This document shows, piece after piece, positions 70-509 of a DNA stretch of 536 nt (the stretch's first letter is position 1; the number at the start of each line of letters is the position of its first letter). Made by a program: the position numbers and the translations under genes. Location: assembly GCF_003334335.1 (NCBI RefSeq), contig NZ_QOWQ01000173.1, one strand, 5' to 3'. The notes below the pieces were generated by a model. That model was not told where the DNA came from. It did no database searches and worked only from the letters and a program-made list of their open reading frames with translations. The stretch comes from Escherichia coli. Its GTDB lineage: Bacteria; Pseudomonadota; Gammaproteobacteria; Enterobacterales; Enterobacteriaceae.

Positions 70-509
70 ACTTTGCCCTCAGACTGGCGCGTGAGATGGG
101 AAGACCCGACTGGCGCGCCATGCTTGCCGGGATGACATCCACCGAATATGCCGACTGGCACCGTTTTTACCGCACGCATTATTTTCAGGATACCCAGCTG
201 GATATGCATTTTTCCGGGCTGACGTACGCTGTACTCAGCCTGTTTTTTTGCGATCCGGATATGCATCCCTCTGATTTCAGTCTGCTTGTCCCCCGGCATG
301 AGGAAGAGCAGGTGGAGAGGCCGGATGAGGACAAAATGCTGATGCAGAAAGCGGCAGGACTTGCCGGAGGCGTCCGGTTCGGTGGGGACGGAGGGCGCGA
401 TATTTTATCGTCTGCGGATGTGGCGGATGTCATGGTGGATGATGCCGCATTAATGATGGCTTCAGCGGGGATTCCGGGAGGTGTGAGATATGTCCCAGCC
501 GGTTGGTGA
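1..509 (+). CDS. GT: Tail assembly chaperone G-T fusion made by -1 frameshift (equivalent to join 1..51,51..509), 5' partial
   Basis: After the slip at 45-51 the reading frame continues as ...DDDFSAGK/VFDGELNFALRLAREMGRPDWRAMLAGMTSTEYADWHRFY... to TGA at 507-509. The ATG at 96 has no usable Shine-Dalgarno (only GTGAG immediately abutting it), and the frame is open upstream to base 36. This fits T being made only as a fusion, as in lambda. Confidence 0.78.
45..51 (+). other. -1 programmed ribosomal frameshift slippery heptamer G_GGA_AAG (X_XXY_YYZ) joining G to T
   Basis: GGGAAAG at 45-51 is phased so the zero-frame codons are GGA (46-48) and AAG (49-51), the same heptamer and phasing as the lambda G/GT recoding site. 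The -1 frame has three consecutive stops (27-29, 30-32, 33-35) just upstream, then is open from 36 through 509. The zero frame stops 16 nt downstream, at 67-69. Confidence 0.8.
216..249 (+). terminator. Candidate intrinsic terminator-like hairpin plus U7 tract inside the T coding region (low confidence)
   Basis: GGCTGA (217-222) pairs with TCAGCC (235-240). After a bulged C223, GTAC (224-227) pairs with GTAC (231-234) around a 3-nt loop (228-230). Two nt later comes TTTTTTT (243-249). The same bases encode ...GLTYAVLSLFF..., so the structure may be incidental. Confidence 0.2.
476..481 (+). promoter_or_regulatory. Shine-Dalgarno sequence (GGGAGG) for the tape measure gene
   Basis: GGGAGG at 476-481 lies 8 nt upstream of ATG 490-492, which is good spacing. 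It is embedded in the 3' end of the GT coding sequence. Confidence 0.6.

Follow-up and report, generated by a model that had tools for sequence, protein, structure and literature searches.

RNA polymerase modified by the lambda Q protein ignores terminators, and the late operons of lambdoid phages are known to contain terminator-like stem-loops. Five putative rho-independent terminators are listed in the N15 record, after genes 7, 8, 13, 20 and 24, and the P22 record places a stem-loop after coat gene 5, 'similar in location to stem-loops in phage HK97 and phage lambda'. Here we analysed a 536-nucleotide stretch of Escherichia coli DNA (contig NZ_QOWQ01000173.1; hereafter the window), which is the G/T/H tail region of a lambdoid phage. 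Its identity is 99.8% with Escherichia phage PhiR12_1 (PV340549.1, 34977-35512) and some 77% with lambda 10102-10588. Within the coding sequence of gene T it carries an RNA hairpin followed at once by a run of seven Ts. As far as the literature and annotation show, this T element is so far unannotated: neither the literature nor the RefSeq annotation of 1677 E. coli genomes was found to annotate or discuss the hairpin. The reading that we prefer, and to which the scores and folds described below lend about an even chance, is that the element is a latent (cryptic) Q-suppressible intrinsic terminator, inherited with the T-domain coding sequence of the gpGT tail-assembly chaperone.

The pairing can be read directly, GGCTGA (217-222) lying opposite TCAGCC (235-240) and GTAC (224-227) opposite GTAC (231-234). 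RNAfold adds the pairs C215-G242 and G216-U241, giving a 12-pair stem that abuts the T run without a spacer and in which 6 of the 12 pairs are G-C or C-G. The codons of the hairpin encode S-G-L-T-Y-A-V-L-S-L. An earlier reading of the letters alone (the sequence-only reading) had reported the same stem pairs, bulged C223, three-nucleotide loop and T7 run, and our direct reading agrees with it. It was also right that the U tract exists on the plus strand only, as the corresponding minus-strand hairpin (−13.0 kcal/mol) is followed by GGAAAA.

Folding of 216-249 gave −14.2 kcal/mol (z = −4.76), a value that none of 200 dinucleotide shuffles equalled. For 210-255, the segment whose energy the sequence-only reading had singled out, we obtained −16.4 kcal/mol (z = −3.89; matched by 1 of 200 dinucleotide shuffles), with the hairpin in 89% of the ensemble; this is well past the −8 kcal/mol that had been proposed as the limit for a credible structure. 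Adding 83 or 143 nt of upstream RNA leaves the hairpin in place in both the minimum free energy (MFE) fold and the centroid fold, and thus no upstream alternative structure competes with it. A terminator predictor, the other check that had been suggested, gave answers that depend on how bulges are handled. A simple scan that disallows them found 0 sites in the window, which we do not take as evidence of absence because the scan forbids bulges, and a bulge-tolerant scanner (at most 2 unpaired stem bases) returned the hairpin with its T7 run as the sole match in the window.

The surroundings of the hairpin contain a further symmetry. A 10-nt direct repeat, GGATATGCAT, flanks it (200-209 and 257-266), with both copies encoding D-M-H. 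ATGCAT is a palindrome, which allows the flanks to pair with each other outside the hairpin (outer stem 198-208/249-258), and the fold of 190-270 that includes this outer stem has an energy of −28.6 kcal/mol (z = −3.6). The T249A difference in lambda would break one outer-stem pair.

We folded and scored the element and three lambda terminators alike, using a d-score formula after d'Aubenton-Carafa (1990). The isolated hairpin of the window, with its T7 run, has a folding energy of −15.4 kcal/mol and a d-score of 22.5, compared to −15.1 kcal/mol and 17.5 for tR2, −18.7 kcal/mol and 7.9 for tI, and −16.0 kcal/mol and 2.7 for t_oop. By this score, the window element is predicted to equal or surpass lambda terminators of proven function. 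The copy of the T hairpin in lambda itself has the same hairpin energy (−15.4 kcal/mol) and a T5 run, and its predicted terminator score is marginal (d-score 3.6). Intrinsic terminators have a U-rich tract of about 7-9 nt that starts 0-2 nt after the stem, and the U7 tract of the window falls within these bounds. They also close a transcription unit or occupy an untranslated leader or spacer, and here the element departs from the rule, being placed in the T frame and inside the Phage_tail_T domain. This departure is mitigated because only ~3% of ribosomes read the T frame (PMC5009743).

The arrangement of the genes around the element suggests how it might act (coordinates of the features are collected in the table below). 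The heptamer of the window is of the lambda type, and the site homologous to it is annotated as the slippery sequence in phi80, N15 and LLS. The −1 frame is open as far as 509, with its stop codon at 507-509, and matches Phage_tail_T (Pfam PF06223) at about 135-371 (E = 7e-14, query residues 29-107). The hairpin starts 146 nt past the G stop, and the H start codon lies 241 nt past the T run. The element is on the same strand as G, T and H, so its orientation matches the direction of transcription. The PhiR12_1 record annotates an antitermination protein Q, and the late genes of that phage share one strand. The open reading frames (ORFs) and this annotation agree with the context given by the sequence-only reading, which had put the element in the T coding sequence about 240 nt before the tape-measure start. 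From the G:GT ratio of about 30:1 (review PMC5009743), about 96-97% of ribosomes leave the mRNA at the G stop. An 82-codon antisense ORF (minus strand, 185-433) overlaps the hairpin region; it is probably spurious, since a promoter-like site was found on neither strand of the window.

We propose that ~3-4% of ribosomes would shift into the T frame at the heptamer and that the rest would stop at the end of G, so that ~420 nt between the G stop and the H start would rarely be translated, as inferred from the G:GT ratio. The RNA around 215-249 would then be mostly free of ribosomes and the hairpin could form behind the polymerase. Such rare translation of the T frame removes the usual objection to an in-gene terminator, which is that ribosomes melt it. 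Polymerase lacking the Q modification would release a sizeable fraction of transcripts around 248-252, and this termination would make the tail genes H to J, which lie downstream, still more dependent on Q. Q-modified polymerase would read through, and the site would be silent in lytic growth, a mere internal mRNA hairpin. On the folds and scores, action on unmodified polymerase with read-through after Q modification seems the most reasonable mechanism. The sequence-only reading had likewise suggested a polarity element for unmodified polymerase. This is consistent with the full terminator anatomy, a predicted strength like that of tR2, t_oop and tI, and the annotated Q, although no selection on the structure was seen.

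A second part of that suggestion, that the site tunes the ratio of GT to H, is impossible as stated, because termination near 249 truncates GT too. The T reading frame runs to 509, and a transcript ending near 249 lacks not only H but also the 3' two-thirds of the T domain, and with it full-length GT. The only effect of termination on these ratios would be to reduce GT together with H to J, compared with G and the genes upstream. It would also leave T-frame ribosomes on RNA without a stop codon, a cost suggesting that the site, by design or merely in fact, is silent during lytic growth.

Table. Coordinates of the T element, of its neighbours in the window, and of terminator-like hairpins found by the strict scanner (defined in the text) in phage late genes
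Feature	Sequence	Position	Strand	Details
RNA hairpin	window	215-242	+	stem 215-222/235-242 and 224-227/231-234, bulged C223, loop 228-230 (GCU)
T7 (U7) tract	window	243-249	+	codons TTT TTT T(GC), F-F-C
Slippery heptamer G GGA AAG, −1 frameshift from G to T	window	45-51	+	in phase with the G frame (codons 46-48, 49-51)
Gene G stop codon, TGA	window	67-69	+	sequence, ORFs, PhiR12_1 annotation
T part of the gpGT frame (−1 relative to G)	window	52-509	+	ORF, translation, PhiR12_1 annotation
Tape-measure gene H, start ATG 490, overlapping the end of T	window	490-536	+	PhiR12_1 annotation, sequence
Hairpin match in C	lambda	4484-4505	sense	
Hairpin match in U	lambda	8604-8640	sense	
Hairpin match in T	lambda	10279-10306	sense	lambda's own copy of the T hairpin
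Hairpin match in K	lambda	14632-14665	sense	
Hairpin match in I	lambda	15163-15187	sense	
Hairpin match besides T	PhiR12_1	24199-24220	sense	
Hairpin match besides T	PhiR12_1	28499-28529	sense	
Hairpin match	N15	4331-4352		

Homologs were gathered from 14 phage records and from 80 IMG/VR and 23 GTDB species-representative genome loci found by protein, together with peptide-level IUPAC scans of IMG/VR and metagenomes in which every synonymous position was free. Pooled, these gave 340 loci (partly redundant) with 28 distinct segment variants. All members of the lambda clade (lambda, phage 21, the PhiR phages and the Shiga-toxin (Stx) phages of types Stx1 and Stx2) have the peptide HFSGL(T/M)Y(A/T)(V/I)LSLFF, and the intact hairpin at −16.4 kcal/mol is present in about 311 of 317 partly redundant lambda-clade loci. 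The variants that occur in this clade are mostly mild. Changes in the bulge at 223 (C/T) and in the loop at 228 (G/A) and 230 (T/C) are neutral for pairing, and A233G and C227T keep a wobble pair. G224A breaks a pair in three variants (−12.2 to −14.3 kcal/mol), and G221T with G231A does so in one locus (−7.9 kcal/mol). The T run varies in length. About 242 loci, of the window and Stx2 types, have T7; the 22 loci with T6 are of the Stx1 type, and 53 loci, of the lambda type and phage 21, have T5.

The sister clade, which comprises N15, HK225, phi80, mEp043 and LLS together with Enterobacter, Leclercia and other prophages, has the peptide GLLY(S/T)IS(T/S)LFF, whose codons vary freely, and is without the hairpin (−1.6 to −5.3 kcal/mol). 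No analogous terminator was found elsewhere in the T region of this N15/phi80 clade; a weak GCAGCTC...GAGCTGC stem there, with a 13-15-nt loop, was rejected as a counterpart. In an Entomohabitans prophage GLTYAV is kept with different codons, and there is no hairpin. The 75-nt segment 196-270 occurs in 1677 of 5426 complete E. coli genomes, where RefSeq annotates it only as phage tail assembly protein T. Rfam, searched at permissive thresholds, gave no match to the hairpin, and its two chance-level hits both lie elsewhere in the window. We attribute the persistence of the hairpin in lambda, phage 21, the Stx phages and roughly one in three complete E. coli genomes mainly to the conserved peptide and the shallow divergence of the clade.

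Two loci stood out for other reasons. In the IMG/VR contig 2874956758_000002, the T gene carries a 45-nt in-frame deletion of RAMLAGMSSTEYADW (equivalent to window 108-159). The deletion lies exactly between GACTGGC direct repeats (window 108-114 and 153-159), inside the Phage_tail_T domain, and looks like a repeat-mediated loss. JAIJJM010000220.1, a 4.8-kb contig in a Collinsella (Actinobacteria) metagenome-assembled genome, encodes a T protein 100% identical to that of the window and most likely represents a misbinned piece of an E. coli prophage.

We then asked whether the pairing itself shows signs of selection. The sequence-only reading had looked to compensatory changes in homologs, and these did not appear: among 14 lambda-clade variants, no pair is altered on both sides, with 8 of the 12 pairs invariant, 2 varying by wobble and 2 broken in some sequences. 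A covariation score over the same 14 variants was no better than shuffles. The wider homolog search, IUPAC scans included, brought no new lambda-clade diversity and no double changes. On a neighbour-joining tree of 45 lambda-clade haplotypes, third-codon Fitch steps averaged 0.67 in the stem versus 1.13 outside it (Mann-Whitney p = 0.34, with only 9 stem sites). In a set of 57 haplotypes, the hairpin has 8 polymorphic sites, of which 5 are structure-neutral and 3 pair-breaking; a codon-aware mutation model gives a neutral expectation of 46%, and the difference is not significant. By these sequence comparisons, no selection on the RNA structure is demonstrable, and the lambda clade is too shallow for this to be a strong negative. 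Homologs that keep the peptide and lose the pairing or the T run, which the sequence-only reading would have counted against the element, exist in part. Pair-breaking variants are present, though rare, the Entomohabitans prophage lacks the structure, and the run ranges from T5 to T7. The lack of covariation and of significant excess synonymous constraint, the variable T tract and the absence of the hairpin from the sister clade fit inheritance with the gene better than a conserved RNA element.

Synonymous variation in the 45 haplotypes, counted as steps per ten third-codon sites, is unusually low in two stretches of the window, at 233-269 (2-4 steps) and 110-155 (3-6), compared to 10-16 elsewhere. 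The first of these covers the 3' arm, the T run and the second copy of GATATGCAT. The low values possibly reflect constraint or a recent recombinational sweep.

Several observations weigh against a terminator that is latent and was simply inherited. Some concern its strength. The pairs that close the stem beside the U tract (C-G and G-U) are weak, and loops of 3 nt are not the most frequent kind, so the real efficiency of termination could be low; and neither a transcript 3' end nor a termination assay for the gene T site was found in the literature. Others concern its origin. We recoded MHFSGLTYAVLSLFFCDP synonymously 3000 times with the codon usage of the late genes of the phage itself; a hairpin and T tract equal to the native ones arose in only 0.2% of these recodings (the native MFE was reached by 0.17%), and thus the peptide does not force the structure. 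The four commonest hairpin polymorphisms fall on the bulge, on the loop, or on an A-to-G change that keeps a U-G pair; that all four should be structure-neutral has a probability of about 0.045 by the codon-aware model, with a threshold chosen post hoc. Each pair-breaking variant is confined to at most 3 of the 57 haplotypes. Finally, a strict scanner (ΔG ≤ −12 kcal/mol, at most 2 unpaired stem bases, at least 5 T in 7, gap at most 2) found 5 sense-strand matches in the lambda late genes, where 0.61 are expected, and none of 150 synonymous shuffles reached 5.

The weakness of the terminal pairs would suit a pure coincidence, a by-product of the codons that is biochemically inert and causes no measurable termination or pausing in its real context, whether because the stem base is weak, because Q modification or occasional ribosomes intervene, or because Rho acts earlier. 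We consider this unlikely. Extrapolation from 0.2% per 18-codon window suggests that chance yields about one such site per ~7000-codon late operon, and the recoding result taken alone is suggestive rather than decisive. At that rate, the 'coincidence of the codons' raised by the sequence-only reading stays a live explanation, even if the peptide by itself does not dictate the structure. All of the evolutionary tests are compatible with neutrality, and the T run comes from Phe-Phe codons, N15 having T6 without any hairpin. What speaks against inertness is that the same scoring puts the T element at or above working lambda terminators, that the hairpin dominates locally and persists in upstream context, and that the site is translated by only a few percent of ribosomes.

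The rarity of the native structure among recodings, the harmless common polymorphisms and the excess of late-gene hairpins would instead suit a selected regulatory RNA element, for which we see some chance though clearly less than an even one. Such an element might be a fail-safe or insulator that keeps non-Q transcription from H to J, or a 3'-exonuclease barrier or partial terminator. The barrier would mark the boundary between the abundant (V, G) and the scarce (GT, H, M, L, K, I, J) products, a role that it would share with the intergenic stem-loops after the major capsid and tail genes of other lambdoid phages. Late-operon stem-loops are annotated in the N15 and P22 records, as noted above, and the lambda-type V-G junction is without one. 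On the antisense strand, the lambda late genes have 1 match with 0.69 expected. PhiR12_1 has 3 sense matches (0.73 expected; P = 0.047), at positions homologous to those in C, U and T. More broadly, the lambda late genes (191-18903) contain 58 stable hairpins (≤ −12 kcal/mol), compared to 39.9 ± 4.2 in synonymous shuffles, and selection for strong folding in these genes has been reported (PMC5737525). Some members of the class are themselves shared. The C-gene hairpin (GARCCCGCCTAYGCGCGGGTTT followed by TCTTTTG) is common to lambda, PhiR12_1 and N15, and differs among them only in the loop and in a switch from A-U to G-U, while the U-gene hairpin (−20 to −21 kcal/mol) is common to lambda and PhiR12_1.

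This class-level signal is less secure than the lambda count alone would imply. Lambda and PhiR12_1 are not independent because they share three homologous sites. N15 has 2 sense matches (0.56 expected; P = 0.075), one of them at the homologous C site, and P22 has 0 (0.07 expected). A recount in lambda that began from hairpins and then required a T tail gave 4 against 0.8 expected, with 1 of 20 shuffles reaching 4. The data suggest that enrichment is confined to lambda-type sequences, without replication in N15 or P22. At the T site itself, a selected element is at odds with the missing compensatory change, with the lack of significant synonymous constraint, with the near-neutral split of polymorphic sites, with the decay of the tract to T5 and a marginal score in lambda, and with the N15/phi80 clade, which has nothing analogous in its T region. 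Real termination would also cut the GT message short and strand T-frame ribosomes on non-stop RNA.

If the class is nevertheless real, the T hairpin could belong to a small set of Q-suppressible sense terminators deliberately embedded in C, U, T, K and I, and could act as a translation-gated attenuator; we regard this as quite improbable. The T site lies in the only long ribosome-poor stretch of the tail operon, and polymerase would terminate there unless it carried Q or the lead ribosome had frameshifted into T. With such a device, the operon would be held to Q dependence, and the plentiful tail products (V, G) would be divided at this point from the scarce ones (GT, H to J).

The late genes of PhiR12_1 also hold more T-rich heptamers (at least 5 T in 7) than expected, with 147 versus 123.5 on the sense strand and 212 versus 180 on the antisense strand. 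None of 150 synonymous shuffles reached either strand's value, and lambda is without such an excess.

Stem-loops are found near G in several relatives. In N15 (9596-9613) and in the Entomohabitans prophage (239-262), a terminator-like stem-loop lies just upstream of G, after the major tail gene, and five Providencia prophages also have one there (at about 260-287). In lambda-type phages, the V-G gap is only 15-21 nt and has no stem-loop. N15 and HK225 have the V-G stem-loop and lack the T hairpin. We considered whether the T hairpin replaces the N15-type V-G stem-loop, and this fits only partly, as the phi80 group has neither. The idea that the inverted repeat is an integration site of helper-embedded satellites was rejected, since the relevant paper reports other late-gene targets and mentions neither tail assembly nor the tape measure.

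A role in translation was also weighed, in which the hairpin and U7 run would make T-frame ribosomes pause or slip by +1 or −1, the hairpin would be a distant stimulator of the G/GT frameshift, or the run would cause transcriptional slippage. U7 is slippery in principle and the gene is already known for programmed frameshifting, and the two signals belong to the same gene pair, the G GGA AAG frameshift accounting for the ribosome-poor region in which the hairpin lies. However, the hairpin starts 164 nt past the heptamer, far beyond the usual spacing of 5-9 nt, and so is not a frameshift stimulator. The T frame reads CUG UUU UUU UGC, which is not an X XXY YYZ heptamer, and with no more than T5 in lambda and T6 in Stx1 phages the run could not give a conserved slippage product. 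On spacing, phase and the non-conserved run we rejected the element as a frameshift stimulator or as a ribosomal or transcriptional slippage site, and hold a translational role to be highly improbable.

If unmodified polymerase does terminate at the T element, as the latent-terminator reading predicts, an operon that is among the most thoroughly studied in biology would contain an unannotated control point, one that occurs in lambda, in Shiga-toxin phages and in about one in three complete E. coli genomes. Such termination would also show that a ribosome-poor stretch created by frameshifting can expose an in-gene terminator. In practice, G-T-H expressed from plasmids or from engineered phages without Q might show unexpected polarity, and synonymous recoding of T could alter the expression of downstream genes. 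If the element is inert, it is a caution that a textbook-quality terminator motif can arise and persist unselected inside conserved coding sequence.

The T element thus resembles three kinds of known system and differs from each. Like the intrinsic terminators tR2, t_oop and tI, it has a G+C-containing stem-loop followed immediately by a U run on the transcribed strand only, with a hairpin energy (−15.4 kcal/mol) and a U-tract score in their range. Unlike them, it sits inside a protein-coding frame and not at the end of a transcription unit, its U tract varies among relatives, and covariation is absent. With the late stem-loops of N15 and P22 it shares a sense-strand hairpin and T run within a Q-antiterminated late operon, as well as a place downstream of the highly expressed V and G and upstream of low-copy genes. 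Those stem-loops, in contrast, are intergenic and lie a few bases past the stop of a major structural gene, whereas the T element lies well past the stop of G, within a T frame that is seldom translated. A parallel in proposed logic is tR' and Q antitermination, where unmodified polymerase is stopped and Q-modified polymerase ignores the terminator. The tR' terminator is promoter-proximal, untranslated and experimentally proven, with a much longer hairpin, and the T element is a candidate known from sequence alone, about 10 kb into the structural genes.

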